DNA of 64,000 nt from Dehalococcoidia bacterium (GTDB lineage Bacteria; Chloroflexota; Dehalococcoidia; Lucifugimonadales; UBA3495): the NCBI GenBank assembly GCA_963692995.1, contig OY843611.1:1126748-1190747 (forward strand). The letters are read 5' to 3'. The notes below the pieces were generated by a model. That model was not told the DNA's origin. It saw only the letters and a program-made list of their open reading frames with translations, and ran no database searches. The translations under genes were made by a program, and so were the position numbers. This document shows, one piece after another, positions 5,412 to 35,308 of this stretch. Each line of letters opens with the position of its first letter. Within the stretch, counting starts at the first letter, position 1.

Positions 5412-5465
5412 GCCGGGGCATTATTCATCCCGTGCTGGCGGGCGGGAGGGTTCCGGCGTTGGCGT

Positions 5466-7475: not shown

Positions 7476-7502
7476 AGTGTTCGGGTCGCTCCGGTGGGGG
7501 GT

Positions 7503-11270: not shown

Positions 11271-11311
11271 AAGGGCGGTTCTCCTGGGGATGGGGTTTTA
11301 TTCGGCGGTGG

Positions 11312-12858: not shown

Positions 12859-12947
12859 TCACCGCGAACGGCGGATGTTGTGTCATTCCGTGAAATTGCG
12901 GATATTTTGGTGTAATAACGCCCCAGGGACTGCCCCCAGGGGGCTAA

Positions 12948-13214: not shown

Positions 13215-13349
13215 TGTGTACTCCTTATCAAATCCCCTTTGCGGTTACACACCGCAGTAGCCTTCGCATTCGTTGATAAACCCGTTCACTTCTATCCGCT
13301 AGTGGGGCCAATCAGGGATGGAATGGGGAGTATCCGGGGGGGGGGGGCA

Positions 13350-13748: not shown

Positions 13749-13821
13749 TGCTGTTTCTCCTGTGATACGGGGGTTCGGCTGCGCCGGTGGGCCCTCCTCA
13801 GCCCTCTGGCGCCGGCCGTCC

Positions 13822-15423: not shown

Positions 15424-15460
15424 GTTGGGGGCCTCCGGTTTCCGGCGGGCGGGTTGACGG

Positions 15461-16147: not shown

Positions 16148-16320
16148 CGGGCGGGCCTCCGCAGGGTCGCGGCCTTTTCCGTTGCGTCGCCGCCGAAGCG
16201 GGCCAGGCCCAGCTGGGTCAGCAGGTCCCGGGGCGCCGGGCTTTCGTTAATCAGCGGGACAATGGCGCGGCGGGGCGCCGTGGTCGCCGGGTGGTGGTGG
16301 GCGTTGCCAGGAAGTTTCAT
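16144..16320 (-). CDS. Small protein (58 aa), not in ORF track
   Basis: Hand translation gives MKLPGNAHHHPATTAPRRAIVPLINESPAPRDLLTQLGLARFGGDATEKAATLRRPAR. AAAGGAG RBS. Stop is coupled to the next start. Confidence 0.45.
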   Translation of the reverse strand: MKLPGNAHHHPATTAPRRAIVPLINESPAPRDLLTQLGLARFGGDATEKAATLRRPAR

Positions 16321-16372
16321 GTGAGTAGTCTCCTTTTCCGGCGCGGTGGCCGGGCAATCTGTCGGGTAGATG

Positions 16373-19463: not shown

Positions 19464-20237
19464 CTATTCCGGCTGTAGATCCCGCTGGTCGAACTGGAAC
19501 CACCGGACCACGCCCTGGGCAATCAGCGCGTCCACCGCGTGGTCGTTGCGCAGGCTGATGATGAGGGGCGTCGCGTTCAGCCCGGTGAACTTGGTCAGAA
19601 ACTCCGCGTTGCGCTGCGCCCGTTGGACGTCCCGGAGGTCGGCGGTGTACGATGCTTCGCCGGCCAGGTAGAACTCGGCGCCGGCCGGGTCGCGGACTTG
19701 GATCACCAGGTCGGCGTTGTAGAAGCTGCGGCGCTGGCCGAAGGGAATGTCCGCCGCGTCGTCCTGCCGGCGGACCAGCTCCCGCAGGTCGGCGCCGTCC
19801 AGCTGGGCGATGATGCGGCAGCCCAGGCTGGCGGCGATGTCGTCAGCCCGGTCCCGGGCCAGACGCCCCGCCACGTGGCCCTTGAGATCGCCCAGGTCGT
19901 CGGTGATGCGCTGCAAGCGGTGGGTTACGGCGGCGTTGAACTCCCGCTGTTCTGCGTTGAACTGCTTTTGCTCTGCGTTGAACTGCTTTTGATCCGCGTT
20001 GAACTGCTTTTGATCCGCGTTGAACTCCTGCTGCTCCGCTATGAAATTCGTGACGTTGACGTTGAACTGCTGCTGCTCCGCTATGAACTTCGTGACGCTG
20101 GCGGCAAACTGCGCAAACCGCTCCGGCAACTGCCGCAGCTCGTCGGACAGCACCAGGCTGCGAACCTGTTCCAGAAAGGCGGGGTCTTCTTGCAGCGTCC
20201 GCATCAGGCGGAGCTTTTCCGATTCATTTAGTGTCAT
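19464..20237 (-). CDS. Coiled-coil tandem-repeat protein with PD-(D/E)xK-like C-terminal domain (paralogue of 1001-1852)
   Basis: VLSDELRQLP N-terminal motif. FN(A/V)(D/E)QKQ heptads. C-terminus DLVIQV...YLAGEASYT. Confidence 0.8.
   Translation of the reverse strand: MTLNESEKLRLMRTLQEDPAFLEQVRSLVLSDELRQLPERFAQFAASVTKFIAEQQQFNVNVTNFIAEQQEFNADQKQFNADQKQFNAEQKQFNAEQREFNAAVTHRLQRITDDLGDLKGHVAGRLARDRADDIAASLGCRIIAQLDGADLRELVRRQDDAADIPFGQRRSFYNADLVIQVRDPAGAEFYLAGEASYTADLRDVQRAQRNAEFLTKFTGLNATPLIISLRNDHAVDALIAQGVVRWFQFDQRDLQPE
19934..20100. repeat. In-frame 21-bp tandem repeat (~8 units) inside CDS 19464-20237
   Basis: GTTGAACTGCTTTTG(A/C)TC(C/T)GC units, several of them identical. Confidence 0.9.
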
Positions 20238-20369: not shown

Positions 20370-20759
20370 TCAGCCCTGGGCCATAGCCCATTCGTAACAC
20401 TCGGCGCACACCGCATACCCTTGCGGCTCGGACCCCCAGGGCAGCGTGGCCCACAATTGTCGGGTCTGGCCGTCATTGGTGACGAAGTGCGGCCCGCGAC
20501 GGCCCGGCGGCGGCGCTCCGTAGCGCGTTGCCAATATCAATGCCGCCGCCGGAACCGCGTCCGATAACGAACAGCGCGGCAAACCGGAGATTATTCCAAT
20601 CTCCATAATGCTATTTACCGCCTGCTGCGCGGCCTTCGGCCATTGGCTGAAATTGTCCCGTCGCTCCGGCTTCTTCCCGTGCATCAAGGCGCAGAGCGCC
20701 CGCTCCGCCGCGTCTCGTAGGTCCCGCAACTTCTCTTCCGGGAGCAAGTCATTCAGCAT
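20370..20759 (-). CDS. Hypothetical protein, paralogue of 20866-21294
   Basis: Shares IMEIGIISGLPRCSLSD, ATRYGA and C-terminal AVCAECYEWAM with its neighbour. Confidence 0.6.
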   Translation of the reverse strand: MLNDLLPEEKLRDLRDAAERALCALMHGKKPERRDNFSQWPKAAQQAVNSIMEIGIISGLPRCSLSDAVPAAALILATRYGAPPPGRRGPHFVTNDGQTRQLWATLPWGSEPQGYAVCAECYEWAMAQG

Positions 20760-20865: not shown

Positions 20866-21294
20866 TCAGTCGGGCAGCATGGCCCATTCGTGGCACTCGG
20901 CGCATACGGCGTGCCGGCGCAACTCCGGGTCCGACTCCGATTTCCGGCTCCCGTAGAGCCACCACACCCGTCCGCCGTGGGCGGCGAAGTGCGGCTCCGG
21001 ATGATCCGGCCACTTGGCCCCGTAGCGGGTTATCAGCTCCGCCCTCCGCCGGGGATCGGTCAGGGCGCAAGGCTGCAACCCGGCGACTAGCCCAATTTCT
21101 ATAATGAGGCGGGTCAGATCGGGCCAGTCCACGGGGGGCCGGCGGGCTTCGTTCCGGCTGAAATCGGGCCACTGCCGGCTGATTTGCGCCTGTTGCAACC
21201 GTCGCAGCAGGATCAGGGACCGCGCGGCCCTTTTCTGAATGTCTCGCAACCGCTCTTCCGGGTGGCTGGCGCTTTGGTTAGGGTCGTCTGCCAT
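20866..21294 (-). CDS. Hypothetical protein, paralogue of 20370-20759
   Basis: IIEIGLVAGLQPCALTD, ITRYGA and AVCAECHEWAM. ATG 21294 overlaps the upstream stop (TGATG). Confidence 0.6.
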   Translation of the reverse strand: MADDPNQSASHPEERLRDIQKRAARSLILLRRLQQAQISRQWPDFSRNEARRPPVDWPDLTRLIIEIGLVAGLQPCALTDPRRRAELITRYGAKWPDHPEPHFAAHGGRVWWLYGSRKSESDPELRRHAVCAECHEWAMLPD

Positions 21295-21521
21295 CAGCGT
21301 TCTTGCCCCTCTTCCGGTGTGGCCGGCTCTAGCGGCGCTGCTTCCGTCTGCTGAGCCACCGTGGGCCAGCAGCCCATGGCCCGCTGCGCCGCCTCGTCCA
21401 GCTCCGGGTTCCGGTATTCCAAATAGCAGCCGTACCAGTCGCAGCGCTCCGCTACGCAATCGTACTGGGCCGCCGCGCCTTGGTCCTCACGGCGCCGGCC
21501 TTTCACCATGCTTCCGGTCAT
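21294..21521 (-). CDS. Small Cys-rich protein (75 aa)
   Basis: ATG 21521 preceded by GGAGGAG. Contains CVAERCDWYGC. Confidence 0.5.
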   Translation of the reverse strand: MTGSMVKGRRREDQGAAAQYDCVAERCDWYGCYLEYRNPELDEAAQRAMGCWPTVAQQTEAAPLEPATPEEGQER

Positions 21522-21604: not shown

Positions 21605-22984
21605 CTACCCCCCGTCCGGCCCCTTCTTCCGCTTCGGACGCTCCAGCGACTGACCCATTTCCAGCAGCAGCGTCTCCCCCCGCGACAGCACCCGCCGCCG
21701 CTGCCGCAAGCGTCCGTCATTGTCCAGAATCCGCGTCAAACTCGGCGGCAGTGGCTCCGTCGGACGCCCGGCCAGCTTGCAAACGTGGCCGTAACTGAAC
21801 TCCTTCCGGTTCGGCCCCCACTGGCTGTCCGCCGCCGCAAACGCCACCCGCGCCCCCGGATACGGCCCGTTGAACGTCTCCCGCTGCAACTGATCCGCGA
21901 CGTCTTCCTCAATCCGCTCCACCAGCGACGGCGCAAAGGGCAGCAAGCAGTAAATCCGTTGCTCGCCGTCGGCCGGCGGCGGATCGAAATACCCCGTAAC
22001 CTTCTCGTCGTGAACCGGCGCCGCGATGCGCCAGATCGCTTCCTTGACCGACTGCGCCACCATGACGCAAGCCTGGCGCTCCTCGTGGCTGATCATTCCG
22101 TCCGCGTAACTTCGCTTGGCCGACCGACCGGCTTGATACGGCAAGTCCGCCATCTCCAGGCTCAGCCAGCGGCTCTCCCGCAAGGCGAACATCGACGCCG
22201 TTTCGGCCAATGTCCCCGACTCCGGACGAAACCGCCAGCACGCTTCCACCGCCGCCAGCCCCAGCGCGACCCGCTCGTCCAGCGCCGTCAGCGACCCCGC
22301 CGTCCGGTTGTCCGTAAGCAGCGATGGCGTCGTTCCAATGACGCTTTCCGCCTCGGACCACAGGTCGTAGTCCCGAATGTTCTGCTCCAGCGCCCGTTCC
22401 GCCGGCAGACAATAGACCGGCAGAAACCGGGTCTGGGGAAAGCGGCTGGCGACGTGTTCGTGGATCAAGTGCCCCAGCCGGGCGTGGCCGCCGAAACCCA
22501 GCCACTCGATGATGAGCTGGGGCCGGGAGCCGATCTCGTTGGCCCGGCGTTCCATCTCGTTCACGATCCGTTCCACGTCCCGCTCAATCGCCCCGTAGCG
22601 ATCCATGAAAAAGTTGGGCTGGCGCAGAAAGCCCTCGGACAAGGGCAAATACTCCGGCACGACGCTGAGGCGCTCCAGACCGGACTCCTGGGCCGCCTGA
22701 CGCCACAAGCGGATGTTCGTCGCGTTGCAGTCGTACACCACCAGCGACTGGATGCGGCTGCGACAGCCCAAGGCGGTCATCTTCCGCGCCCACAGCGCGC
22801 TGCGCTGCATTCCGGTGGAACCGACCGAGAGGGATACGATGGGCGCCGGCTCCCGGTCCGGCGCGCCGGCGTCCACGCCGTTGAGCTGGGCCGGTGACGC
22901 GCCCATGTAGTAACGGTTCGCCGCCTTGGGCGCGCCGGCCCAGCTCCGGGGCAGCGCTGATCGGGGGTTCAGTCGCCAGGGCAT
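21605..22984 (-). CDS. Candidate divergent tubulin/FtsZ-superfamily (TubZ-like) protein with degenerate nucleotide-binding loops
   Basis: 459 aa. Ordered motif series: SVGSTG (res 53-58), YDCNATN (84-90), EGFLRQP (117-123), LGFGGHARLG (162-171), LPVYCLPAE (188-196), LLTDN (222-226). This matches the T1/T3/T4/T5/T7 order and TubZ-like spacing. The RBS AAAGGAG lies inside the end of the upstream gene. Confidence 0.45.
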   Translation of the reverse strand: MPWRLNPRSALPRSWAGAPKAANRYYMGASPAQLNGVDAGAPDREPAPIVSLSVGSTGMQRSALWARKMTALGCRSRIQSLVVYDCNATNIRLWRQAAQESGLERLSVVPEYLPLSEGFLRQPNFFMDRYGAIERDVERIVNEMERRANEIGSRPQLIIEWLGFGGHARLGHLIHEHVASRFPQTRFLPVYCLPAERALEQNIRDYDLWSEAESVIGTTPSLLTDNRTAGSLTALDERVALGLAAVEACWRFRPESGTLAETASMFALRESRWLSLEMADLPYQAGRSAKRSYADGMISHEERQACVMVAQSVKEAIWRIAAPVHDEKVTGYFDPPPADGEQRIYCLLPFAPSLVERIEEDVADQLQRETFNGPYPGARVAFAAADSQWGPNRKEFSYGHVCKLAGRPTEPLPPSLTRILDNDGRLRQRRRVLSRGETLLLEMGQSLERPKRKKGPDGG

Positions 22985-22988
22985 AATG

Positions 22989-23216
22989 CTAGTCTCCTTT
23001 GCGGTTTCGGGATGCGGGCGGCCGGGGGGAGCGGTTTCTTTGGCGGTAGGAACCGCGGGGCGGGAAGGCCGGCTGCGACGGTTGCTCCGGTTGCGACGCC
23101 GGCTCCTCCGGCGACCGCCCGCACTGCAAGCAGCGCACGTAGCGCCCGTAAATATCCCGATGCACCATCAAGTCGCCGTGACAGCGACGACAGCCGGCCA
23201 ACTTCCCTTGAGCCAC
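22989..23216 (-). CDS. Small zinc-ribbon protein directly upstream of the TubZ-like gene
   Basis: CRRCHG...CLQCG. GTG start. The stop is 4 nt before the next start. Confidence 0.55.
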   Translation of the reverse strand: MAQGKLAGCRRCHGDLMVHRDIYGRYVRCLQCGRSPEEPASQPEQPSQPAFPPRGSYRQRNRSPRPPASRNRKGD

Positions 23217-24260: not shown

Positions 24261-24776
24261 TTACCCGCCAAACTCCCGCGCTCGGCGCTCCCGCCGACAA
24301 ACCCGGCACCAGCCGTCGGCGCCCGGCTGGAGGTGGCCGCAGCCGATGCAATACGCCGGTTCCGGCCAGCGTTCCAGGGGCCACGGCGGCGGCGCCAAGC
24401 GCAGTATGCTGCCCGGCGGCGGCGAATAGGTCCGGACCGGCGTCTCCGCCGGGGCGGGCGTTTCTGCTGCGGCCGGCGTCTTTGCCGGGGCGGGAACCTC
24501 CGCTGCGGCCGGCGTTTCCGCCCCGGCGGGCGTCTTTGCCGGGGCGGGCGTCTTTGCCAAGGCGGCAGCCTTCGCCGGGGCGGGCGTCTCCGCCAAGGCG
24601 GCAACCTCTGCCGGGGCGGGTGTCTCCGCTGCGGCGGCAACCTCCGCCGGGGCGGGCGTCTCCGCTGCGGCGGCAACCTCCGCCGGGGCCGGCGTTTCCG
24701 CTGCGGACCCGCCGCTCTCCCCATCTCGGAATAGCGACAGCTGTTCTCCTGACGCCTTTCGGTTCGCTTTCGCCAC
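24261..24776 (-). CDS. Protein with N-terminal QLSLF (beta-clamp-binding-type) motif, ETPAPAEVAAAA repeats and C-terminal zinc ribbon
   Basis: GTG start. GEQLSLFRDG at residues 10-19. 36-bp tandem repeats. CIGCGH...CRVC. Confidence 0.6.
   Translation of the reverse strand: MAKANRKASGEQLSLFRDGESGGSAAETPAPAEVAAAAETPAPAEVAAAAETPAPAEVAALAETPAPAKAAALAKTPAPAKTPAGAETPAAAEVPAPAKTPAAAETPAPAETPVRTYSPPPGSILRLAPPPWPLERWPEPAYCIGCGHLQPGADGWCRVCRRERRAREFGG
24440..24720. repeat. Tandem ~36-bp repeats encoding (A)ETPAPAEVAAA units
   Basis: Visible periodicity in both DNA and protein. A related copy lies at 24850-24935 in the next gene. Confidence 0.8.
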
Positions 24777-24803: not shown

Positions 24804-25223
24804 CTATAGCCAGCGTTCCAAGGGCCACGGCGGCGGCGCCCAACGGAGTACGCGGCGCGGAGTCTCCGCCGGGGCCGGCGTCTCCGCCAAGTCGGCCACC
24901 TCCGCTGCGGCCGGCGTCTCCGCGCCTTCCAGCTCCGTTAGCAGCTCTTCCAGCTCCGCCAGAGACGTAACCACCGCCGCTCTTCCGCCGGCCAGTCCGA
25001 TCCGCTCCAGCTCCCGCGCCTGACCCGGCGTCGCTTTCCGGCCCGGACGCTTCACCTCAATCCCCACAAATGTCCCATCAACGCAGGCTACGAGGTCCGG
25101 CAGCCCCCGCTGCTGCTGCGGCGATCCCACAATTTTGATAGCGTAGTGCCCCCGCTGCCGCAACCGCGCCAGCAAGCGCCGTGTCAGACTGCTCTCCCGC
25201 ATAGCTAACTCTTTTCTGGTCAT
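24804..25223 (-). CDS. VRR-NUC domain nuclease
   Basis: GLPDLVACVDGTFVGIEVKRPG (PD...ExK core). The tail ETPAPAETP...APPPWPLERW is shared with the gene at 24261-24776. Confidence 0.75.
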   Translation of the reverse strand: MTRKELAMRESSLTRRLLARLRQRGHYAIKIVGSPQQQRGLPDLVACVDGTFVGIEVKRPGRKATPGQARELERIGLAGGRAAVVTSLAELEELLTELEGAETPAAAEVADLAETPAPAETPRRVLRWAPPPWPLERWL

Positions 25224-25492
25224 TCCAGCCTCAGCCGCGGTTCCGCTGCCCCGGCTCTAATCCAGCGATACACCGTCCGCGACGATACCCCGTACCGCGC
25301 TGTCGCCCCGGCCGGGTCCAGCCGCAGCTCCGTCAACTCCGCCGCGCTAAAACTTCGCGCCGGCCGTCCTTTCCGTAACGCCTGGTCGTGTACGCACTCG
25401 GCTAACGAACAACTCAAGCACGACGGCGACCACCGACATCCCGTGTCCGGCAGACACAGCGGCTCCGCCGACCTTCCCTTCGCTTTTGCCAT
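25220..25492 (-). CDS. Cys-rich plus helix-turn-helix small DNA-binding protein
   Basis: CLPDTGC...CLSCSLAEC followed by YGVSSRTVYRWIRAG. Confidence 0.6.
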   Translation of the reverse strand: MAKAKGRSAEPLCLPDTGCRWSPSCLSCSLAECVHDQALRKGRPARSFSAAELTELRLDPAGATARYGVSSRTVYRWIRAGAAEPRLRLE

Positions 25493-25652
25493 CTTGCTTT
25501 TCTCCTCGGCTCCCGCCCCGGTTTTTGATTTGCGCCGTTTTCCTGCGTTAGAGCCGCTGCGCGGCCCTTCGTTCTTTGCGGCGGTAAAATCCCGGCAAAG
25601 CGGGAACTAGGGCCGCTCCGGGCCGCTACGGGGCAAATTAGGCCATTCCGCG

Positions 25653-27374
25653 CTAGTTTCCCGATGCCGTTTCCAGCAGCGGCGGCCAGTCCACCGCCAA
25701 CGCGCTCGCCGCCGGACACAACACCAACTCCTCCCGCGCCCGCGTCATCCCTACGTAAAACAGCCGGTACACCGCCGCCTGCCGCTCCGCGCTCCCCAGC
25801 CACTCCTGCATCCCCGCCGCCGACAAGTCCGGGAACAAGTACACTACGTCCGCTTCCGCTCCCTTCACGCTGTGAATTGTTCCAATCACCACTTGCGGCT
25901 CTTCCAGGAGCGCCGTCCGCCCCCGCCGCTCCGCGATCCGCAATGGATACTCCAGCCGCTCCTGCCAGCTCTTCAGCAAGTTGGCCCGATACCATTCCAG
26001 ATCCGGCCCCAGCCCCGCGTCCACCGCCCACCGGGTCAGCGTCCGCTCCAGTTCCGCTTCCGGCAGCGGCTCCTCCGGGTCCGGCCAACGCTCCTGCAAC
26101 TGCGCCAGCCCCTTGCGTCCTTCCGTCAGCGCCGCTTGCGCCGTTACCGTCGGCGTCCACTTCTCCAAATCTCCCAGGGTCCAGCCGGCGCCTTCCACAT
26201 GGTTCAGAAAGGCCGCCAACCGCCGCGCCGACGCTATTCCCCGCGCCGAACCCCCTAACGGGTTCCACTTGCCCTGCCGCCGCCGCCAGGGGTTGTGAAA
26301 GGGCAGGCCCCGCTTCCGCAACTCGGCTACGGCCAGGTCAAGCATGTAGCTGCACGTCGCCAGCAGCATCGCCGTCCGTCCGGCGGCCAGCTCCCCTTCG
26401 ATGTCGTCAATCACCGCCGGCGGCCGCTCCCACGTCCCTTGCCCTTCCCGCACCCGCCCGGCGGCGGCCCGGGGCCGGTACTCCACCGGCGTCCGCAACG
26501 GACTGCGCTCGATCCACGCCGTCGCCGTCCGATGCACCGCCGCCGGCACCCGCCAGGACTGGCTCAGCGTCCGCTGATCCACCCGAAAGCCGGCGTGGTC
26601 CGGGCCGGCGAAGGCGCCGCCTTCCGCGCCCCGCCAGCCGTACAGGTTCTGATCCGGGTCGCCCACCAGCGCCAGGCGCCCGGCTTGCCGGCCCCACTGC
26701 CGCGTCAGCGCCAGTTCCAGCCGCGACAAGTCCTGGGCCTCGTCCACGAAAATCACGTCGGGACGGCCCGGCGGCGGCGTTCCTTCCGCCAGAGCGCGCT
26801 CAATCAAGCCGGTGAAGTCGCACATATCACGCTCGATTAGCCACTCTTGCCAGCGCCGGACGAACCGCGCCAGCGGCCCTTCCGGCGGAACCGGCTCCAT
26901 CCGCGACCGCAACGCCTGATACCACGACATCAACTCGTCGGGCCGCCGCGACCGGTGTGGCTCCGATCCGTAGCCGGCGGCGGCCGCGTTGTCGCCGTCC
27001 AGGTCCACGCCCCCGCTGAGGGCGTATTCGGGATGCGCCGCGTTCCACAGCCGCAAGTTCTCCGGCGTGTCTGCCAGTTCGGGACGCCCCAAGGCGTGGT
27101 AGCACTGGGAATGCAGCGTCCCAACTCGCTCCGCCGGTATGGGCAAGTCCCGGCCGGCCGCTTCCGCCGCGGCGGCGCGGGTTAGTGAAATCACCAGAGG
27201 CCGCAGTCCTGCCGCCACCGCGCCGGCGACCTGCCGGGACAGGTAGGTCGTTTTGCCGCAGCCCGGCGGCCCGATTACCCGGTGTTCCACCGGAAGGGCT
27301 GCCGCCGCCGGGCGGGTTCCCGCGGGGGCGTCGCCCTGGCCCGGTCTCTCTCCCGGAACGTGGTTGACGGTCAT
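25653..27374 (-). CDS. UvrD/Rep-family (SF1) DNA helicase
   Basis: GPPGCGKTT, IFVDEAQDL, TIHSVKGAEADVVYL, YVGMTRAREEL. ATG 27374 preceded by GAGG (ORF track starts at GTG 27380). Confidence 0.9.
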   Translation of the reverse strand: MTVNHVPGERPGQGDAPAGTRPAAAALPVEHRVIGPPGCGKTTYLSRQVAGAVAAGLRPLVISLTRAAAAEAAGRDLPIPAERVGTLHSQCYHALGRPELADTPENLRLWNAAHPEYALSGGVDLDGDNAAAAGYGSEPHRSRRPDELMSWYQALRSRMEPVPPEGPLARFVRRWQEWLIERDMCDFTGLIERALAEGTPPPGRPDVIFVDEAQDLSRLELALTRQWGRQAGRLALVGDPDQNLYGWRGAEGGAFAGPDHAGFRVDQRTLSQSWRVPAAVHRTATAWIERSPLRTPVEYRPRAAAGRVREGQGTWERPPAVIDDIEGELAAGRTAMLLATCSYMLDLAVAELRKRGLPFHNPWRRRQGKWNPLGGSARGIASARRLAAFLNHVEGAGWTLGDLEKWTPTVTAQAALTEGRKGLAQLQERWPDPEEPLPEAELERTLTRWAVDAGLGPDLEWYRANLLKSWQERLEYPLRIAERRGRTALLEEPQVVIGTIHSVKGAEADVVYLFPDLSAAGMQEWLGSAERQAAVYRLFYVGMTRAREELVLCPAASALAVDWPPLLETASGN

Positions 27375-27424
27375 GGACACCTCGCCTCTGCTTCTGCCGG
27401 GCCTGGCTTTGCCTCGCCGGGCCC

Positions 27425-27615
27425 GGCGGGGCGGCCTCTCTATACTTAAGGAAGAAAAATGTTTTTATTTTTTTTCGTCCTTAAGTCACGATGATTTGGT
27501 AAGAAGGATAAGGATTAGTGGGAGATTAAATAAAAAAAGCGGAATCTTCGAAAACGTTACTTTCGTTATCTTCGTTATCCGCAAACTTGATTTTTCAGAT
27601 TTTTCGTAATCCGGC
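27425..27615. promoter_or_regulatory. AT-rich intergenic island with inverted and direct repeats (candidate origin/DNA-unwinding element or strong promoter)
   Basis: IR CTTAAGGAAGAAAAA (27445-27459) / TTTTTCGTCCTTAAG (27471-27485). Three 9-bp repeats CGTTA(C/T)(T/C)TT at 27555-27581. Sharp GC drop relative to the flanks. Confidence 0.45.
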
Positions 27616-27617
27616 GG

Positions 27618-27944
27618 CTACGGCTCATTACCGGAACTGTGGCTGCGGCGCAACCGGCGCTCCGCCCGCCGGGCGAAGTTCGAGACGGGCGCAAAGGCGG
27701 CGGGGCCTGTGATTACGACCAGGGAGGCCGCGGAGAACACGCCGGCCGCGGTCGCGGTGGAACCGATTAGCACTGTCATTAGGCCGGCTGCGGCGTCTAG
27801 CGGCAGAGCGCGGATCGCAACCACGGCGCCGGCAGCAACGGCAAACCCCGCCGCGCCGACGGCGGCGATTGTGAAGACGGCGCCGGAGTCCAGGGTCATC
27901 TCGCCTCCCGCGGTCTCGCCGGTTTCCTTTCTTTTCGCGCTCAT
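27618..27944 (-). CDS. Small membrane protein
   Basis: 108 aa with three Ala/Gly/Val-rich hydrophobic segments. AAAGGAAAC RBS. Confidence 0.55.
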   Translation of the reverse strand: MSAKRKETGETAGGEMTLDSGAVFTIAAVGAAGFAVAAGAVVAIRALPLDAAAGLMTVLIGSTATAAGVFSAASLVVITGPAAFAPVSNFARRAERRLRRSHSSGNEP

Positions 27945-28012
27945 TCCGGTTTCCTTTTGCCGGCTCAGGGGACCTTGCCCCCGCGCGGGGCCACTGTTGT
28001 GGGCAAAACCCG

Positions 28013-28276
28013 TTAGTCTCTATGTAACACACCCGATATAACGGGCGCGGTTCCGGCGTCCGGGTCGGCAGCGTCGGGATCAGCCTCGGCGACTGTGGCC
28101 GAGGTCGGAGCCGCCGGAGCCGCGCCGAATTCCGTCGGCCCCATAGCGACGGTCACGACCCCCCGCCGGTTTCCCAGGTCCATAATGTCCATGGTAGCCC
28201 TCTGCACGATGGGCCAGTGGCCGGCATTGGCCGCGACTTCCCGCTGCTTTCCGTTCTTTCTGCTTTGAGCGCTCAT
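28013..28276 (-). CDS. Hypothetical small protein (87 aa)
   Basis: ATG 28276 preceded by GAGGAG. Confidence 0.4.
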   Translation of the reverse strand: MSAQSRKNGKQREVAANAGHWPIVQRATMDIMDLGNRRGVVTVAMGPTEFGAAPAAPTSATVAEADPDAADPDAGTAPVISGVLHRD

Positions 28277-28370
28277 TTTCGCTTTTCTCCTCGCGTCGGG
28301 GGCAAGGCCGCTGGGGAGGAGCCGCCCCTTGTGAATAAAATCTCGCTTCGGTTTCGTCCGCGCTTTTCCC

Positions 28371-29993
28371 CTATATGATCGGCGGCTCTTTTCCCGCTTC
28401 CTTCTCCTCAATCTCGGCGCAGAGCCGGTACGCCGACCGGGTGGTGTTTCCCGCGTGCAGTGTGCGCCGTTCCATTCCTAAGTCCTTCAGCCGGTTCGCC
28501 AGCTGCCGCGACGTCGGCTCTTCAATCAGCCGGTACTTCAGCCACTTGCGTAAATCCGTCAGAAACAGATGCCGGTGGCCGGCTCCGTCCACGTACAGCG
28601 ATCCCGTGTCTCCCGCTTCAATTAGGTCGTCCAGCATCCGCCGTTCTCGGATGTAGCCGGCTACCCACTCTCCGGTCTCGTCCCGTTCCGTCCACTCTTC
28701 CGGCTCGACGCTGGCGAAAATCAGCTGCGCCATGCGGTCCCACTCCCGCGCGCTGCGCCGGGGCAGCACCATCCCCGTGGCGTCGGCCAGCCGGGCCCGG
28801 AAGGCCGTCTGGGACAGGATCGCTTCCGCCCGGCCAATGGTCACCACGCCGGCCGCCGTGACCATCCGGTACTCCGGCGGGTCGCCTTCCGTCTTTCGGA
28901 TGCCCTGAATGCCCAGGTCAACCAAGGGCGACAGTTCTGCCGTTACGCTTTTTGTCGCGCCGCGCCGCGCCTTTTCCAAAGTTCGCCGGTAGTAATCCGT
29001 GCGCAGTTTCAGGTTTCCCGCGTGCCGTCGCCGGTGGGCGATCAGCAAGTTCACGATTTGCTGGTCGCTCCACTGCCAGGCCGCCGCCAACGCCGCCAGA
29101 CTCAGGTCGTAACCGGAGAGGCTCTGATCCGGCAGGTCATCCCTTTGATGCTCCCACGAGGCCCGCGCCGCCGGTTCCTCGGCAAAAAGCCGGCTCAGCA
29201 AGTCGTAGTCCGGCGACGCTTCCGCCGACAGGGCAAACCCGGCCGGCTCCCCCGGCGCCGGGGCCGGCGCCGGCTGCGGCGCCGCTCTCTTCCCAATCGC
29301 TGCGTTCCCGGCTATCGGCCCCGGCGATGCGCCGGCAACTGCCGTCGGGTCAACGGGCAAATATCCGGCCAGCTCCGCCGGCGCATAACGTGGCCCGTCG
29401 GTCTCCAGCGCCGTTACCCGCTGCGGCTCCCAACCCTTCCGGTTTAGCGTGCCGGGCAGCCGCAAGACCCGCGCCAGATCAAAAGTGGAGTCCAGCGCCC
29501 AGCCGCGTTCCCGCCAGGCGGCTTGCAGCATCCGCTGCCAGCGCCGCGCCAGCTCGCCAGCCCGTTCCCGCGCCGCCGGCGTGGTCAGCAGCCACGGCTC
29601 CGGGAACAGCCACCAGCAGTGCCAGCCGTGGCCGCTGCTGATGCTGACGGTCGGCGGCGGCGCCGCTTCCCGAAGCCGGCTGGCGACCGCTTCCCGATCC
29701 GTGGGCAGTCCCGGCTTGGCGTGGGCCGGATCGGCCAGGTCCAGGTCAATCCACACGCCAGCCAGGGCGTGAGCCTGCGCCGCCGGCAAACGCCGCCCGG
29801 CGTCGGGGGGCCAGTCCGGCGGCGCCAGCGCGACTCCGGTGTAAATGTCGTAGTCGGCTAATCGCCGGCAAAGCTCGTCCGCCTCCGCCGGATCGGTCAG
29901 CCACCGGCTCCTTTTATCCGGCAAGGTCCAAATTAGCATTGCGCCGGGGGGCTTTTCGCCCCACAGGGCGGTCAGGAATTCGCCGGGTTCCAT
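28371..29993 (-). CDS. AEP-family DNA primase-polymerase (prim-pol)
   Basis: WIDLDLAD (DxD), SSGHGWHCWW (sGxGxH), RLPGTLNRK. ATG 29993 preceded by GAGGAG. Confidence 0.8.
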   Translation of the reverse strand: MEPGEFLTALWGEKPPGAMLIWTLPDKRSRWLTDPAEADELCRRLADYDIYTGVALAPPDWPPDAGRRLPAAQAHALAGVWIDLDLADPAHAKPGLPTDREAVASRLREAAPPPTVSISSGHGWHCWWLFPEPWLLTTPAARERAGELARRWQRMLQAAWRERGWALDSTFDLARVLRLPGTLNRKGWEPQRVTALETDGPRYAPAELAGYLPVDPTAVAGASPGPIAGNAAIGKRAAPQPAPAPAPGEPAGFALSAEASPDYDLLSRLFAEEPAARASWEHQRDDLPDQSLSGYDLSLAALAAAWQWSDQQIVNLLIAHRRRHAGNLKLRTDYYRRTLEKARRGATKSVTAELSPLVDLGIQGIRKTEGDPPEYRMVTAAGVVTIGRAEAILSQTAFRARLADATGMVLPRRSAREWDRMAQLIFASVEPEEWTERDETGEWVAGYIRERRMLDDLIEAGDTGSLYVDGAGHRHLFLTDLRKWLKYRLIEEPTSRQLANRLKDLGMERRTLHAGNTTRSAYRLCAEIEEKEAGKEPPII

Positions 29994-30051
29994 TGGTCTC
30001 GTTCTCCTCGCCGGCGGGCTGGTCCGCCAACTGGCCGTTTGCTCTGGGGGA

Positions 30052-31470
30052 TCAGCCGTTGGGGACGGCGGCCGCTCTTTGATCCGGGAAGGCGGCGGCC
30101 CGCTGGCCGGCCGCGACGCCGGCCACCCCGGCCAGCACCGTCTCCACCACCTGCTGCCGACGCTCCAGCGCGGCATAAACCCGCGTGTCCACCGTGTCCG
30201 CAGCGACCAGATGCACGTAGCGCACGCTTCCGGTCTGCCCCGGACGATGCAGCCGGGCCCGGGACTGCAAGTAATCGCCCAGGGAATACCCCAGACTGTA
30301 GTAAACCGCCGTCCGCGCCGCCGTCAGGTCCAGGCCCGAACCGCCGGCCTGGATCTGCGTCGCCAGCACACCGCCGTCTTCACGCCAGCGCTTTAGCTCC
30401 GCTCCCGCCTCAGTCCGCCCCGAAATCTCCGCTACCGGCAAGTTCTGCTCCTGCGCCACCCGCCGGATCGTGTCCAGGTCGTAGCGAAACCGGCAGAACG
30501 CGACCAGCGGCGCCGGGCCGTTTTCATCCACCAGGTCGGCCAGCAGCCGTTCTTTGCCCGTGTCAATGCCCACGGTCGCCCCATCTTCCAGCGCGGCGTA
30601 GCCGCTGGTGATCTGCTGCAACCGCAATAATCGCGTCAGTACGTTGGCCGCCGTAATCGTTCCTTCCTGAACCTCGGCGATAAAGTCCTGGGCCAACTGC
30701 TCATAAACCCGCCGCGCCTTTGCCGACAGCCGGCAATAACGCCGGCTGTCCAGCGTCGGCGGCAAGTCCAGCGCATCTTCCGCGCTGACCTGGTAGGCAA
30801 TGGCCGCAAAGCGCCGCTGCAAGTCGTCCAGATTCTGGTAGCCGGTGATCTGCTGGGGAATGGTCGGATTGTCCCGACAAGCGTAATAATCCCGAAATCT
30901 GGCCCAGGACCCGCCGAAGATCCGCGGGTCCAACGCCCGGCACTGGGCGTAAATATCCAGCGGACTGTGGGGCATCGGCGTGCCGGTCAAGGCGATTCGC
31001 CAGGGTATCCGGCGCGCCAGCGCCTGGCTGAACCGGCTGGCCCGGCTGCCCGGACTCTTGATGCGGTGACTCTCGTCCAGCGCCAGCAGCTGCCAGGGCT
31101 GGCGCAGCAGCCAGTTCGCCAGGGGCGGCCGCCAGGCGCTTTCGTAGTTGATCACTACCACGTCGGCCGCCGACCCCTGAGCGATGCGCCGGGCGGCGTT
31201 CCCCAGCTCTCCGGTCAAGGCGGCCAGGGACCGGCCGTCGCCGTACCGCTCCCACTGCTCCGGCCAGACGCCGGTGACCACGGAACGGGGTGCCAGGATC
31301 AACGCTCGGCCTTGGGGCAAGTCCCGGATGGCGGCGATGGCGCAGCGGCTCTTGCCGGTGCCCATTCCCATGGCCAGCATGGCGCCGGGCCGCGCCCGGA
31401 TGAAGTCCAGCGCGGCCTGCTGGTGCGGCCATAGCGGGGGAGACGGCTCCGGCCGGGCGACGGCGGCCAT
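30052..31470 (-). CDS. SNF2-family helicase
   Basis: LWPHQQAAL, GMGTGKS, LALDESHRIK, LTGTPMPHSPLDIY, HRPGQT. ATG 31470 overlaps the upstream stop. Confidence 0.9.
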   Translation of the reverse strand: MAAVARPEPSPPLWPHQQAALDFIRARPGAMLAMGMGTGKSRCAIAAIRDLPQGRALILAPRSVVTGVWPEQWERYGDGRSLAALTGELGNAARRIAQGSAADVVVINYESAWRPPLANWLLRQPWQLLALDESHRIKSPGSRASRFSQALARRIPWRIALTGTPMPHSPLDIYAQCRALDPRIFGGSWARFRDYYACRDNPTIPQQITGYQNLDDLQRRFAAIAYQVSAEDALDLPPTLDSRRYCRLSAKARRVYEQLAQDFIAEVQEGTITAANVLTRLLRLQQITSGYAALEDGATVGIDTGKERLLADLVDENGPAPLVAFCRFRYDLDTIRRVAQEQNLPVAEISGRTEAGAELKRWREDGGVLATQIQAGGSGLDLTAARTAVYYSLGYSLGDYLQSRARLHRPGQTGSVRYVHLVAADTVDTRVYAALERRQQVVETVLAGVAGVAAGQRAAAFPDQRAAAVPNG

Positions 31471-32288
31471 CAGGCGGTCTCGCCCTCGGCGGCGGCGGTT
31501 GCGGCAACCGGCGCGTTCTCCTCGGCCGGTTCTCCCTCCGGCGCATCGGGGAACTCCGGCAACTCCGGCAATCCCTCCGCCGCGGCGAAACCCGTCCGCA
31601 AATAGGGCCGAATGCGCTCCGTATATTCGCTTACCGACGCCGTTTCCGCCTCGTTCAAGTCCCCGCTGCGCTGGGGCTGCACCCGACTGTACTTCAGCCC
31701 CGTAGCGTTCTTTTCCTCCACCAGCGTGAACCGCGTTATCGTCTGCGCCAAATGACGCCCCTCCGTAATCAGCCGCACCACGTACTGCTTCCACGCCCCC
31801 ACGGACGCCGCCGGCACTCGGATGATCAGAGGGATCAGCCGATCCGGGGTCAGCAGATACACCATCCGCGATTCTGCGCAGGCTTTGCCCCGCCCCGACT
31901 CGCTGGTGCCATAGTTGTTCCACGAACAACCGAAACAGTGGCCGCCGGGACTGCCCACGCCGGTCACCCCGTCGGCGCTGGCGCAGTCGGGCGGCCCCCC
32001 GCTGCCCTCGCCGTAGGGCAGCGGCCAGTAGGCCCGCGCCGCGTGGGAGTGGATCACTACCCCCTCCAGCTCCCGCGCCATGATGTCTTCGTCGCTCCCC
32101 GGCACCTGCCACTGCTTGCCGCCGGCCGACGGCACTTTGATGATGTCCAGCGCCTGGCTGTCCAGCCGGTCGCCGCCCAGGTTGTCCGCCAGCAAGTCAA
32201 ACAACTGCCGGCTATCCCACTGGGCAATTAGAAATCGGTTGCTTTCAGCGGCGACAACCGCGTCGCCGACTTCGGGTTTGGTAGCCAT
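31470..32288 (-). CDS. Phage replication/recombination-module protein of unknown function
   Basis: 272 aa. AAAGGAG RBS. CFGC motif. Acidic C-terminal tail. Lies between the Cas4-like exonuclease and the SNF2 helicase. Confidence 0.65.
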   Translation of the reverse strand: MATKPEVGDAVVAAESNRFLIAQWDSRQLFDLLADNLGGDRLDSQALDIIKVPSAGGKQWQVPGSDEDIMARELEGVVIHSHAARAYWPLPYGEGSGGPPDCASADGVTGVGSPGGHCFGCSWNNYGTSESGRGKACAESRMVYLLTPDRLIPLIIRVPAASVGAWKQYVVRLITEGRHLAQTITRFTLVEEKNATGLKYSRVQPQRSGDLNEAETASVSEYTERIRPYLRTGFAAAEGLPELPEFPDAPEGEPAEENAPVAATAAAEGETA

Positions 32289-32356
32289 ATTGGGTAAAAC
32301 TCCTTTTCTTGCTGCTTTGCGTTGCTGTTCTTCCCGGCGACGGATGCCCTCCCTCT

Positions 32357-33454
32357 TTACTCCGTCGCCAAAGCCTTGATGATTAGCCGCTGCGTCTCCG
32401 TCCAGCTCACGACCCGCTCCAGCTGTTCCGGCGCCAGCATCGTCTTCAGCAAGGGCAGAGTCTGGGCCGTTACCGCCGGCCGCCGGTCAACGCGCCGCTG
32501 CACCAGCACGTCCCCGGCGCCCGGATTAATCTGAAACTCCTCTACGCCGGCGTAGTCCATGGCGGCGAACAGGTCCCGCCGCGCCGCCGTCTTCGCCTTT
32601 TCCGCCGCCGCTTTGGACCGGCTTTCGTCCGCGGCCCGCTGGTAACGCTGCACCGCGTCCACCACATCATTCAGGTCGTAAGCCGCCTCCGGCGTCGCGT
32701 CGTCCACGGCCCCTTGGTCCTCCGGGGGACGGCAAAGGTCCCGCCAGGGACAGCGCTGGCACTGCCAGTCCGACGGCTGGAAGTCCGGCTCCGGCGGCTC
32801 CCCGCCGGCCAGCAGCTCCTGGGCGAATTCGTTCAGCCGGGACGCTACCGCGGCCACGGTCCGGTCCAGCAGCGCCGGCGCCAGCAGCTCCGTGTCGTAC
32901 TCCTTCGTCTCGGTGTCCAGCACGGCAATCACCGCCGGCGTATCCGGGCTGATTTCCTCCCGGCCGCTTTCCAGCATGCCCGCGCGGTAAACCGCCGTCT
33001 GGGCCAGGGCGGCGGGATGGGCGAAGGCCACCCCCATGGCCCGCCAGAATTTGTACTGGCCGTGGGACCGGGCCTTCGCCTCAATCAGCGCGTAGTCGCC
33101 GCCGGTCAGCTCGGCATGGGCTCCCCGACCGTCGGGTATCCCCGTAATGGTCAGCCGCGACCCCAGCCGCAACCGGATCGACGGCCGACGCGGCGCCGGC
33201 CGATACTCGTAGTTCGATGTCTTCCACCCGTCCCGGCGCATCGCCTGGAATAGGATACTTTCCAACGCCCGGCCGGCGTCCATTCGGGTCAGCGCCAGCG
33301 CGTCCGGCGGATTAGTCGGCGCGACCTGCCGGGCCGCGTAGTGCAGCGCCCGGCGGCAATCGCCCACCGCGGAGGCTCGGATGGCGACGTTGCCCTGGTC
33401 CGTAACGGCGGCGGCGGGACGGCGGCGGTTCAGCAAAGTTTCGCTTGAGGTCAT
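32357..33454 (-). CDS. PD-(D/E)xK exonuclease with Cas4/RecB-type Cys cluster
   Basis: N-terminal C (VGDCRRAL) plus C-terminal CQRCPWRDLC, the typical 4-Cys arrangement of Cas4/DUF2800-type phage exonucleases. Confidence 0.75.
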   Translation of the reverse strand: MTSSETLLNRRRPAAAVTDQGNVAIRASAVGDCRRALHYAARQVAPTNPPDALALTRMDAGRALESILFQAMRRDGWKTSNYEYRPAPRRPSIRLRLGSRLTITGIPDGRGAHAELTGGDYALIEAKARSHGQYKFWRAMGVAFAHPAALAQTAVYRAGMLESGREEISPDTPAVIAVLDTETKEYDTELLAPALLDRTVAAVASRLNEFAQELLAGGEPPEPDFQPSDWQCQRCPWRDLCRPPEDQGAVDDATPEAAYDLNDVVDAVQRYQRAADESRSKAAAEKAKTAARRDLFAAMDYAGVEEFQINPGAGDVLVQRRVDRRPAVTAQTLPLLKTMLAPEQLERVVSWTETQRLIIKALATE

Positions 33455-35298: not shown

Positions 35299-35308
35299 GG
35301 CTGCTGAC

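Follow-up and report, generated by a model that had tools for sequence, protein, structure and literature searches.

Proteins of the tubulin/FtsZ superfamily act in cell division, in the segregation of chromosomes and plasmids and in the positioning of the phage nucleus, with TubZ and PhuZ being plasmid and phage homologues of tubulin that segregate or position DNA. In its T4 loop the superfamily carries the glycine-rich signature GGGTG(S/T)G, while strand S6 of tubulin ends in the motif xDN and each tubulin subunit has its active site completed by an acidic residue on T7/H8 of its neighbour. Among divergent prokaryotic members, 'FtsZ-like' proteins with the Pfam Tubulin_2 domain and 'CetZ-like' proteins of Chloroflexota-Dehalococcoidia have been collected via Pfam Tubulin-type domains (Santana-Molina et al. 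2023, PMC9871819).

Here we analyzed a gene for a 459-residue protein in a 64,000-nucleotide stretch of DNA from a Dehalococcoidia bacterium (contig OY843611.1 of assembly GCA_963692995.1; the whole stretch is called the window below). An earlier note on this DNA had read the product as a very divergent homologue of TubZ and FtsZ, possibly impaired in nucleotide binding, encoded within an integrated element. The reading frame and its translation were as given there, and each of the motifs that had been listed was found at its residues, namely SVGSTG (53–58), YDCNATN (84–90), EGFLRQP (117–123), LGFGGHARLG (162–171, or nucleotides 22472–22501 when counted from the start codon at 22984), LPVYCLPAE (188–196) and LLTDN (222–226). 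The features of the locus are collected in Table 1.

Table 1. Positions of the features of the window that are discussed in the text
Feature	Position	Strand	Remarks
Tubulin-like gene, 459 aa	21605..22984	minus	Intact ORF, ATG start
Conserved basic C-terminal helix, RLRQRRRVLSRGETLLLEMG	21653..21712	minus	From homologue alignment
Candidate T7 loop and H8 start, R253-P-E-S-G257-T-L-A-E261	22202..22228	minus	Between helices 232–252 and 259–268
Core helix H7 (model helix 232–252)	22244..22279	minus	Conserved D236 and E247
T6 motif, T224-D-N226	22307..22315	minus	Ends strand 221–225 (S6)
S5/T5, L188-P-V-Y-C-L-P194-A-E196	22397..22423	minus	Aligns with TubZ LLISLPxDD
Variant T4 loop, G163-F-G-G-H167-A168	22481..22498	minus	Between strand 157–163 and helix 168–181
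T3-like loop, P110...G118-F-L-R121-Q-P123	22616..22657	minus	Alignment A2
T2-like motif, Y84-D-C-N87 (S2 end)	22724..22735	minus	D85 in 37/40, N87 in 39/40
T1-like loop, G55-S-T-G-M-Q-R61 (S1/H1 junction)	22802..22822	minus	After strand 49–54 of the model
Zinc-ribbon protein, 75 aa, basic Pro/Arg-rich tail	22989..23216	minus	CxxC at 9–12 and 29–32
Shine-Dalgarno AAGGAG of the tubulin-like gene	22994..22999	minus	Within final codons of the zinc-ribbon ORF
Replication/recombination module	24804..33454	minus	Upstream of the tubulin-like gene, same strand
CI-like repressor (HTH and S24 peptidase)	34573-35298	plus	Pfam
Tyrosine integrase	35249-36436	plus	Pfam; with the CI-like repressor marks the right edge of the element

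Predicted fold and nucleotide pocket

The AlphaFold2 model of the protein (pLDDT 84.6, pTM 0.82) ran through the elements S1-H1-S2-H2-S3-H3-S4-H4-S5-H5-S6-H7-H8 and ended in a C-terminal domain, and the two-domain tubulin architecture was found in this predicted structure, with a Rossmann-like part (S1–S6 with T1–T6), H7, T7/H8 and a C-terminal beta/alpha domain. Foldseek searches of the PDB with the model gave 794 matches at E ≤ 1e-3, the best of them with E-values of about 4e-10 to 4e-9, a probability of 1.00 and about 405–477 aligned columns (mostly 420–430) covering both domains. The top 50 were exclusively tubulin, TubZ and Asgard or Odin tubulin, without any other fold, with tubulin, TubZ (4ei7), Asgard AtubA/B, gamma-tubulin and OdinTubulin at E-values of about 4e-10 to 1e-9; TM-scores were moderate, about 0.45–0.55, with rmsd values of 6–8 Å. 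The top 10 matches in BFVD were all FtsZ-, tubulin- or PhuZ-like proteins of phages. These results support placing the 459-residue protein, as a highly diverged member, in the structural superfamily of tubulin and FtsZ, so that the proposed homology was borne out at the level of the predicted fold.

Sequence searches missed this relationship. The protein had no match in Pfam, NCBIfam, PHROGs or PADLOC, the chromosomal paralogues A and B and the distant family members described below likewise obtained no family-library assignment, and no Tubulin-type Pfam model was found at thresholds of E ≤ 0.1 to 1 for the window protein, paralogues A and B or ten distant members. Searches of the PDB with phmmer and hmmsearch returned chance matches only (a xylosidase and RsfS). 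Profile–profile comparison, which had been suggested as a check, gave no significant link to tubulin either, as hhalign reached a probability of 2% (P = 0.02) against a 19-sequence TubZ family profile, 0.5% against Escherichia coli FtsZ and a likewise non-significant score against pBtoxis TubZ. The local register against the TubZ profile was nevertheless correct, with T4, S5/T5 and T6 lining up with TubZ in order in an alignment of non-significant score. Because no sequence method links the family to tubulin or FtsZ, its homology rests on predicted structure. In our literature searches no description of the family was found.

To examine the pocket we used an alignment of 40 sequences with identities down to about 20% (A2), to which all residue counts out of 40 refer. 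The motifs listed above were the most conserved columns across 35–40 homologues, some of them just ~20% identical, and since the predicted fold is also that of tubulin/FtsZ, they are not chance resemblances. In the T1-like loop, G55 and [ST]56 were each kept in 39/40 sequences and R61 in 31/40; in the T3-like loop, P110 and P114 were found in 38/40 each, G118 in 39/40, F119 in 37/40 and R121 in 36/40. The canonical GGGTG(S/T)G box was absent at the T4 position of the protein, its place being taken by the conserved variant G163-F-G-G-H-A-R, in which H167 was invariant (40/40) and G165 and G166 were each present in 35/40; this GFGGHA stretch aligned with GAGGGVGTG of TubZ in the best local hhalign alignment. 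We know of no canonical tubulin signature motif that contains a histidine. At S5/T5, P194 was kept in 40/40 and [DE]196 and L188 in 39/40 each. These assignments of T1, T3, T4 and T5 fitted both the order of secondary structure in the model and the top local alignment with the TubZ profile.

The LLTDN motif had been taken for T7, but it ends S6 and aligns with ILTDNK of TubZ, in which N213 is invariant, and must therefore be read as T6 (D225 in 35/40, N226 in 32/40), with the T7/H8 candidate instead being RPESGTLAE at residues 253–261, where G257 was found in 30/40 and an acidic residue at position 261 in 34/40. Within H7, D236 (37/40) and E247 (35/40, plus Asp in 3) are candidate base-contacting acids, judging by their spacing to N226 and by analogy with tubulin and FtsZ. 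An impairment of nucleotide binding, as the earlier note had considered, appears unlikely with all pocket loops so strongly constrained; because every loop is strongly conserved, including the invariant histidine of T4, the pocket seems to have been modified rather than to be in decay.

Set beside the described systems, the protein was closest in its predicted structure to alpha/beta-tubulin, BtubA/B, AtubA/B and OdinTubulin, which gave the best matches overall, and its S6 also ends in xDN. It differed from these tubulins in showing about 9–16% identity to them in structural alignments, in the lack of a GGGTGSG box and in a model without the H11/H12 C-terminal helical hairpin, having short helices at 414–420 and 435–442 only. 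With TubZ of pBtoxis and Bacillus cereus (the latter being PDB 4ei7) it would share the two-domain fold (Foldseek E 6e-10), and the two proteins are alike in being borne by mobile elements, in size (459 versus 484 residues), in a C-terminal extension past the core and in the alignment of TDN(R) with TDNK, whereas they differ at T4 (GFGGHA versus GAGGGVGTG), show no detectable sequence homology and come from Chloroflexota and Bacillota hosts, respectively. A PhuZ was found among the BFVD matches (E 2e-4), again a tubulin fold on a mobile genetic element, although the structural match was weaker than to tubulin or TubZ. The superfamily fold is shared with FtsZ as well, but no FtsZ structure occurred in the top 50 PDB matches, the protein has neither the Pfam FtsZ/Tubulin nor the FtsZ_C domain, and its gene lies outside a division cluster. 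As for the Tubulin_2 and CetZ-like groups, these are likewise divergent, sparse prokaryotic members of the superfamily and one was reported in the same class (PMC9871819); the family studied here appears to differ from both, because the members examined have no Tubulin-type Pfam match.

The element and the zinc-ribbon reading frame

The tubulin-like gene is part of a long operon of co-directional genes, in which it comes shortly after a replication/recombination module encoding a PD-(D/E)XK nuclease, an SNF2 helicase, a primase-polymerase, a UvrD-like helicase and a VRR-NUC nuclease. The proposal of an integrated element with a tyrosine recombinase held for the right side, where the integrase and CI-like repressor are followed by host-type genes (MoxR, DUF58, transglutaminase) from about 37.5 kb, but not for the other end, since neither a convincing att repeat between the integrase flank and the remainder of the element nor a left boundary was detected in the window. 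There was also no tRNA within the window, and among its scanned ORFs we found no virion or phage-nucleus genes; in this, and in integrating via a tyrosine recombinase, the element differs from those with PhuZ.

The zinc-ribbon ORF has two CxxC motifs, and its stop codon indeed lies 4 nt upstream of the start codon of the tubulin-like gene. Its GC contents at codon positions 1, 2 and 3 (0.67/0.59/0.78) form a more favourable pattern than those of the frames that overlap it, and it looks coding; it is co-transcribed and translationally coupled with the tubulin-like gene. The product gave sub-threshold family matches only and no HTH match. As a conserved partner it was rejected, since it adjoins 0 of about 66 homologous loci as examined by tblastn and de novo clustering. 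No neighbour gene was common to the mobile-element loci. A 293-residue coiled-coil protein encoded downstream was likewise considered as a recurrent partner and dismissed, being not homologous to the product of a 294-codon coiled-coil gene that follows one homologue (L062); its few homologues lie 5–7 kb away from the tubulin-like gene. The likening of the zinc-ribbon protein to TubR thus stood as regards position, but pBtoxis TubR is annotated as a winged helix of the MarR family and the zinc ribbon does not recur.

The earlier note had pointed to the repeat arrays at 11312–11908 as possible binding sites of the zinc-ribbon protein; no tubC-like array flanks the tubulin-like gene. No repeat array was detected within 21.3–24.3 kb or in the surroundings of 11 homologues borne by mobile elements, and the sole iteron array of the window, in which GGGCATYAGGTTCC occurs 12 times where 0.03 occurrences would be expected, is found at 11324–11908, about 10 kb off and separated by eight or more genes. 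Compared with TubZ systems, the window locus hence lacks both the winged-helix TubR and adjacent tubC iterons.

Distribution of the family and its C-terminal tail

The family was tiny, with 84 clusters among 1.84 billion representatives, and none of the 51 close and 84 representative homologues was named. All 53 loci in GTDB reference genomes (53/53) belonged to Dehalococcoidia/Chloroflexota, to which class the family is apparently restricted. At 47 of these loci the gene occurs as a chromosomal tandem pair of co-oriented paralogues, A and B, with a median gap of 250 nt, a feature that recalls the heterodimeric tubulins, sets the family apart from TubZ and is not shared by the window locus, which has a single copy and no tandem partner. 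The chromosomal pair was flanked by genes of ordinary metabolism (alpha/beta hydrolase, ADH, luciferase-like monooxygenase, E1 dehydrogenase).

In the phylogeny, the clade of the window protein was sister to chromosomal paralogue B, with an identity of about 33% between the window protein and B. When homologues were sought in related elements, as the earlier note had advised, they were indeed found, with members of the window-type clade being borne by integrated elements and by 350–680 kb, apparently circular contigs of phage-like or plasmid-like character. Their neighbourhoods included ArdC/ParA/RadC/TraG (L001), ArdC/ParA/DnaB/GyrA (L060), DnaX/SMC-like (L061) and GyrB/RF1/Dcd (L063) genes. 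One close homologue (L002) was the only one near a phage head-maturation protease, a further likeness to PhuZ; its contig, 414 kb long and apparently circular, carries an integrase as well. The single-copy gene of this clade could co-occur with the chromosomal pair, either on one chromosome (L005 with L049) or on two contigs of one MAG (L006 with L047, and L003 with L045). No relatives were found among IMG/VR, INPHARED phages or PLSDB plasmids, the first two of these setting the family apart from PhuZ, and JGI metagenomes gave just two loci, both of which, judged by their identity and the range matched, belong to the chromosomal type. Among the distant members there were fusions with a receiver domain, with a trypsin-like peptidase or with transmembrane segments. 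Three deep-branching members (P0070, P0081 and P0103) sit on short contigs, and a fragment 99% identical to the window protein (P0038) was found on a different contig.

In most close homologues a variable linker joins the globular core to a short terminal peptide that is conserved, a layout like that of FtsZ. The window copy does not have it, as it stops soon after the basic helix, without the linker and the terminal [DN][LM]GxGxGxL peptide, and is about 45 residues shorter than most relatives. Three-frame translation revealed no frameshifted remnant of a tail. Several other family members are likewise tail-less, and most element-borne homologues have the full tail. Because the linker and peptide are missing, the window copy may not engage the same partners as its relatives.

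Possible roles of the element-borne protein

With a probability of roughly 50%, we take the protein to be a new, very divergent filament protein of the tubulin superfamily that is used by mobile elements, likely for positioning or segregating element DNA. From the two-domain fold, the constrained pocket and the conserved acid of the candidate T7/H8 element, we infer that it would bind nucleotide and assemble head-to-tail, with polymerisation switching on the NTPase. Paralogues A and B, in tandem on the chromosome of the host lineage, would probably form a heteropolymer, and mobile elements of that lineage carry copies from the clade sister to B. In the manner of TubZ and PhuZ, the element-borne filament would most likely position or segregate the DNA of the element while this replicates or is in episomal form, and this would be achieved without an adaptor and centromere of the TubR/tubC type adjoining the gene.

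The element copy might instead target the host A/B cytoskeleton, co-assembling with its filaments or capping them. A B-like subunit devoid of the linker and partner-binding peptide would thereby, at induction or establishment, arrest the host cell or change its shape. Other phage factors act in this way on host FtsZ, and we regard this as a genuine if minor possibility, given the sister relationship to paralogue B, the coexistence of the pair and the single-copy gene in some genomes and MAGs, the missing tail of the window copy and the lack of a DNA adaptor or centromere linked to the gene; yet most element-borne homologues have kept the full tail, and the identity to paralogue B is low for co-assembly. 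That the tubulin fold is here non-polymerising, serving as an enzyme or switch that binds a nucleotide or another ligand in the DNA metabolism of the element with His167 being catalytic or ligand-binding, seems rather unlikely to us. The rewritten signature loop with its invariant histidine, the receiver, peptidase and transmembrane fusions of distant members, which suggest signalling or effector roles, and the neighbouring nucleases and helicases would agree with such a function, but both tubulin domains and the acidic residue of the candidate T7/H8 element are kept, a chromosomal tandem pair and an FtsZ-like tail of linker and peptide are typical of filament systems, and to our knowledge nearly all characterised proteins with the two-domain tubulin/FtsZ fold self-assemble.

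A canonical type III (TubZRC) partition motor, in which the zinc ribbon would be the adaptor and the 11.3–11.9 kb array the centromere, is quite improbable. TubZ was indeed among the best structural matches, the zinc-ribbon ORF with its basic tail is coupled directly upstream and the iteron-like array in the element is genuine; however, TubR is a winged helix, while the zinc ribbon has no significant family match and is absent at about 66 loci, the array is distant and no repeats adjoin the operon or the homologues, and PF22453, which genuine TubZ relatives carry, as well as PF00091, which most of them also have, are missing from the window protein. It is very improbable indeed that the gene is a decaying, non-functional and truncated remnant that is carried passively, as might be thought from its shorter length and missing terminal peptide, for the frame is intact with a strong Shine-Dalgarno sequence and a GC3 of 0.85, all 26 of the 26 positions that are invariant in a 35-sequence alignment are retained, the near-identical fragment P0038 exists elsewhere and other members are tail-less too. 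A broader reading, to which we give a low probability, is that Dehalococcoidia would possess a third, unrecognised bacterial tubulin cytoskeleton, an A/B heteropolymer with an invariant histidine, from which the giant phage-like and plasmid-like replicons and integrated elements of the lineage would have captured B-like copies. The nucleotide or the mechanism of hydrolysis could then be different, with the histidine replacing the chemistry of GGGTGSG, and the B-like copies, some of them tail-less like that of the window, might serve to move the DNA of the elements themselves, or else to take over or poison the filament of the host.

The diversity of the tubulin/FtsZ superfamily in prokaryotes informs ideas on the origin of microtubules, and the family studied here escapes every sequence library that we tried (Pfam, NCBIfam, PHROGs, PADLOC and PDB), with a nucleotide loop that is rewritten yet invariant. 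An abundant class of marine and sponge-associated bacteria, for the most part uncultured, keeps it on the chromosome as a tandem pair, and it is found again on integrated elements and on extrachromosomal replicons of very large size, which points to an undescribed bacterial cytoskeletal system. Should the family polymerise, it would be a new branch of the cytoskeleton tree, a natural experiment that shows how much change the GTP-binding signature tolerates and a handle on the positioning and inheritance of giant mobile elements of Chloroflexota; should it not, it would represent a rare recruitment of the tubulin fold to another function.

Predicted fold and nucleotide pocket of the 459-aa protein

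The 459-aa protein encoded by the tubulin-like gene almost certainly has a tubulin-superfamily fold, as judged from its predicted structure. Sequence comparisons gave no credible match in Pfam, PHROGs (E<=1), NCBIfam (E<=0.1) or PADLOC (E<=0.01), the sole PHROG match (E=0.17, unknown function) being at chance level, and PDB sequence searches with either the protein or its family profile returned chance matches only. An AlphaFold2 model built on the alignment of its homologues had a mean pLDDT of 84.6 and a pTM of 0.82, with pLDDT >=90 at 284 residues, and followed the tubulin/FtsZ order of elements (S1-H1-S2-H2-S3-H3-S4-H4-S5-H5-S6-H7-H8, with the C-terminal beta/alpha domain last). Foldseek found 794 PDB matches to this model at E<=1e-3, the top 50 being exclusively tubulins, B. 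cereus TubZ (4ei7), Asgard AtubA/B, gamma-tubulin and OdinTubulin (E 4e-10 to 4e-9, probability 1.00, ~420-430 aligned columns, TM-scores 0.45-0.58). All 10 matches at E<=1e-3 among predicted viral structures were phage FtsZ/tubulin/PhuZ-like proteins. The model therefore supports, at the structural level, the proposal of the earlier note that this is a very divergent tubulin homologue.

Every motif listed in that note was found at its residues in the translation, and strong conservation in an alignment of the protein's homologues fell exactly on these motifs. For comparison we used E. coli FtsZ, TubZ and TubR of pBtoxis, and a TubZ family profile from 19 sequences. The profile-profile comparison with TubZ did not reach significance (probability 2%, P=0.02); the best local alignment in it spanned 68 columns in the expected register and paired GFGGHA with GAGGGVGTG, LPVxxxP with LLISLP, and LLTDNR with ILTDNK, of which N213 is invariant in the TubZ profile. 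LLTDN, previously read as T7, therefore corresponds to T6. Among 40 family members, with identities down to ~20%, each pocket loop carried near-invariant residues: G55 (39/40) and [ST]56 (39/40) in T1, D85 (37/40) and N87 (39/40) in T2, G118 (39/40), F119 (37/40) and R121 (36/40) in T3, H167 (40/40) in T4, P194 (40/40) and [DE]196 (39/40) in T5, D225 (35/40) and N226 (32/40) in T6, D236 (37/40) and E247 (35/40) in H7, and an acidic residue at position 261 of T7/H8 (34/40). This pattern does not look like the degeneration, with impaired nucleotide binding, that had been suspected; as far as the alignment indicates, the predicted pocket is constrained and its chemistry altered, with an invariant His in the phosphate loop.

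Positions of features in the window, in the 459-aa protein (residues) or on contigs carrying close relatives (contig size)
Feature	Position or size	Strand	Remark
T1 loop	G55-R61		order of elements in AlphaFold2 model
T2 loop	Y84-N87		same
T3 loop	P110-P123		same
T4 loop	G163-A168		same
T5 loop	P194-E196		same
T6 loop	T224-N226		same; end of strand S6
H7 core helix	232-252		same
T7/H8	253-261		same; RPESGTLAE
Defence or anti-defence-like cargo	7503-17575	minus	left part of element
Iteron-like array	11324-11908
Coiled-coil protein, 293 aa	19464-20345	minus	DNA repeats at 19933-20112
Paralogous small proteins	20370-20759, 20866-21459	minus
Tubulin-like ORF, 459 aa	21605..22984	minus	translation
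Zinc-ribbon ORF, 75 aa, two CxxC pairs	22989..23216	minus	translation
Cys-containing protein, 171 aa	24261-24776	minus
VRR-NUC/Hjc-like nuclease	24804-25223	minus
CI-like repressor	34573-35298		right side of element
Tyrosine integrase	35249-36436		right side of element
MoxR, DUF58, transglutaminase (host-type)	from 37.5 kb		beyond integrase
L001	349 kb, 'c'		nearby ArdC, ParA, RadC, T4SS coupling protein (TraG)
L060	367 kb		nearby GyrA, ArdC, ParA, DnaB, DnaC-like
L002	414 kb, 'c'		nearby integrase; head-maturation protease (phrog_53, E=3e-46)
L061	539 kb		nearby DnaX, SMC-like ATPases, DNA methylase
L063	677 kb, 'c'		nearby RF1, GyrB, dCTP deaminase, methylases

The operon and its element

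The zinc-ribbon ORF lies on the same strand as the tubulin-like gene, its stop codon ending 4 nt ahead of the latter's ATG, as described before. Its GC content by codon position is that expected of a genuine gene (0.67/0.59/0.78 at positions 1/2/3, vs 0.66/0.50/0.85 for the tubulin-like gene), and its last codons contain the ribosome-binding site AAGGAG of the tubulin-like gene; the two are therefore co-transcribed and probably translationally coupled. It is not, however, a credible counterpart of TubR, as had been proposed: the pBtoxis TubR has a winged helix, whereas this ORF is a zinc ribbon, with sub-threshold family matches only, and it was absent beside all of ~66 homologous loci (tblastn and clustering). 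Clustering found no universal neighbour gene among these loci.

No repeat array adjoins the operon or its homologues. The iteron-like array holds 12 co-oriented copies of GGGCATYAGGTTCC (vs 0.03 expected by chance), paired ~35 nt apart, with the pairs recurring at nested periods of 88/89 and 212 nt, and most of it falls in the intergenic stretch that follows the gene for the 1255-aa methyltransferase-helicase. The array may be the element's origin or centromere; it lies ~10 kb from the tubulin-like gene, with no link seen between them. With no winged-helix TubR, no adjoining repeats and an array this distant, the locus does not have the TubZRC layout.

The integrated element with a tyrosine recombinase, as envisaged earlier, is borne out on its right side by the integrase, repressor and host-type genes; a search of the window for tRNA genes and att repeats was negative, and no left boundary was found there. 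Leftwards on the minus strand follow a PD-(D/E)XK nuclease, SNF2 helicase, primase-polymerase (phrog_2478), UvrD-like helicase, VRR-NUC nuclease, several small Cys-rich proteins, the zinc-ribbon ORF and the tubulin-like gene, then two paralogous small proteins, the coiled-coil protein, a 624-aa unknown, a pentapeptide-repeat protein, a GmrSD-like nuclease and the methyltransferase-helicase. No virion or conjugation gene was seen among the window ORFs scanned.

Several features of this element deserve mention in their own right. The adjacent paralogous small proteins just downstream of the tubulin-like gene (36% identity, E=3e-21) both end in AVCAEC(H/Y)EWAM, and had no family match and no counterpart in other loci. 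The coiled-coil protein carries tandem 7-aa repeats (QFNAEQK); its homologues lie 5-7 kb from tubulin-like genes in three other loci (L052, L005, L008), and it shows no homology with the coiled-coil gene that follows the homologue in L062. ETPAPAEVAA-type repeats are common to the 171-aa protein and the VRR-NUC/Hjc-like nuclease, with 18/36-nt tandem repeats in the DNA at 24439-24706 and 24858-24923. The cargo comprises the 1255-aa protein (DUF6094 methyltransferase plus helicase), the GmrSD-like nuclease (PADLOC HEC-05, 1e-22) and the pentapeptide-repeat protein (400 aa). GC skew of the plus strand is unusually strongly positive over 1-12000 (0.22-0.45, 2-kb windows), drops to ~0 at 12-14 kb and is negative past 20 kb.

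A chromosomal pair and probable giant replicons

Word-indexed searching across 5.8 billion proteins yielded 51 homologues of the 459-aa protein, all of them unnamed and lacking Pfam domains. When 1.84 billion cluster representatives were searched exhaustively with an HMMER profile, only 84 proteins came up, and no canonical tubulin or FtsZ was among them. In a set with a single genome for each GTDB species, every one of the 53 loci lay in a Dehalococcoidia/Chloroflexota MAG, with SAR202 and sponge-associated bins represented; JGI metagenomes held two loci, and IMG/VR, INPHARED phages and PLSDB plasmids no relatives. Some distant, deep-branching members (P0064, P0103, P0070/P0078) have C-terminal fusions to a response-regulator receiver domain, a trypsin-like peptidase or predicted transmembrane segments.

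Of the 53 reference loci, 47 proved on de novo clustering of neighbourhoods to hold two co-oriented full-length paralogues in tandem, A (~455 aa) and B (~505 aa), separated by a median of 250 nt; contig ends truncated two more loci. The pair occurs in L007-L055, for example at 8375-9748 and 9995-11500 of L009. Its neighbours are ordinary metabolic genes, so that the conserved unit is the pair itself. About 1.5 kb upstream, with an alpha/beta-hydrolase gene in between, lies a conserved 338-aa protein (L009 5893-6909 and equivalents) weakly matching Pox_D5 (primase-helicase C-terminal), which may hint that the 'chromosomal' pair itself came from an old mobile element.

The window gene is single-copy, and its clade is sister to B in a neighbour-joining tree. 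Its closest relatives lie on contigs of 349-677 kb, three of them presumed circular from names ending in 'c', that may be giant phage-like or plasmid-like Chloroflexota replicons; most genes near the homologue there lack a Pfam match. Judging from these contexts, the clade is carried both by giant replicons, some phage-like and some plasmid-like, and by integrated elements. Two further loci (L062, L064) have a second, more divergent tubulin-like copy 3-5 kb away, followed by a histidine kinase gene. Both loci also encode, within a few kb on the upstream side of the tubulin-like gene, a prokaryotic ubiquitin-like module (E2, JAB, ThiF; L062 375-5926) with vWA, PP2C and a kinase, a receiver-SpoIIE phosphatase and an anti-sigma-type kinase.

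Possible roles

The protein probably binds nucleotide and polymerises. The element would then use its filaments to position or segregate its own replicating or episomal DNA, without an adaptor of the TubR/tubC type, a tentative reading to which we assign a probability of about one in three. The main rival, itself unlikely, is that the window copy targets filaments that the host forms from its A and B proteins. Most close homologues end in a conserved basic helix (RRRVLSRGE...), a variable linker of ~40 aa and a conserved terminal peptide, [DN][LM]GxGxGxL, a layout recalling FtsZ. The B-like window protein ends shortly after the basic helix, and no frameshifted remnant of the tail was found in the DNA downstream.

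The remaining readings are less likely than action on host filaments. A non-polymerising enzyme or switch is somewhat the less probable of the two, and a canonical TubZRC system, for which the upstream ORF and the array had been the candidate parts, is improbable. Least probable is a decaying remnant: apart from the missing tail the copy is intact, retaining 26/26 positions invariant in a 35-sequence alignment.

Positioning of element DNA remains our preferred reading. The A/B pair, for its part, resembles a heterodimeric system of the tubulin type that belongs to the host lineage. The fold is already known, and searches of the literature that was searchable turned up no account of this family. 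Santana-Molina et al. gathered their 'CetZ-like' Dehalococcoidia proteins by way of Pfam Tubulin-type domains, and this family has no such domain. Undescribed, as far as the tools show, are the family itself, the rewriting of the signature loop, the confinement to Dehalococcoidia, the tandem pair on the chromosome and the occurrence on giant replicons.
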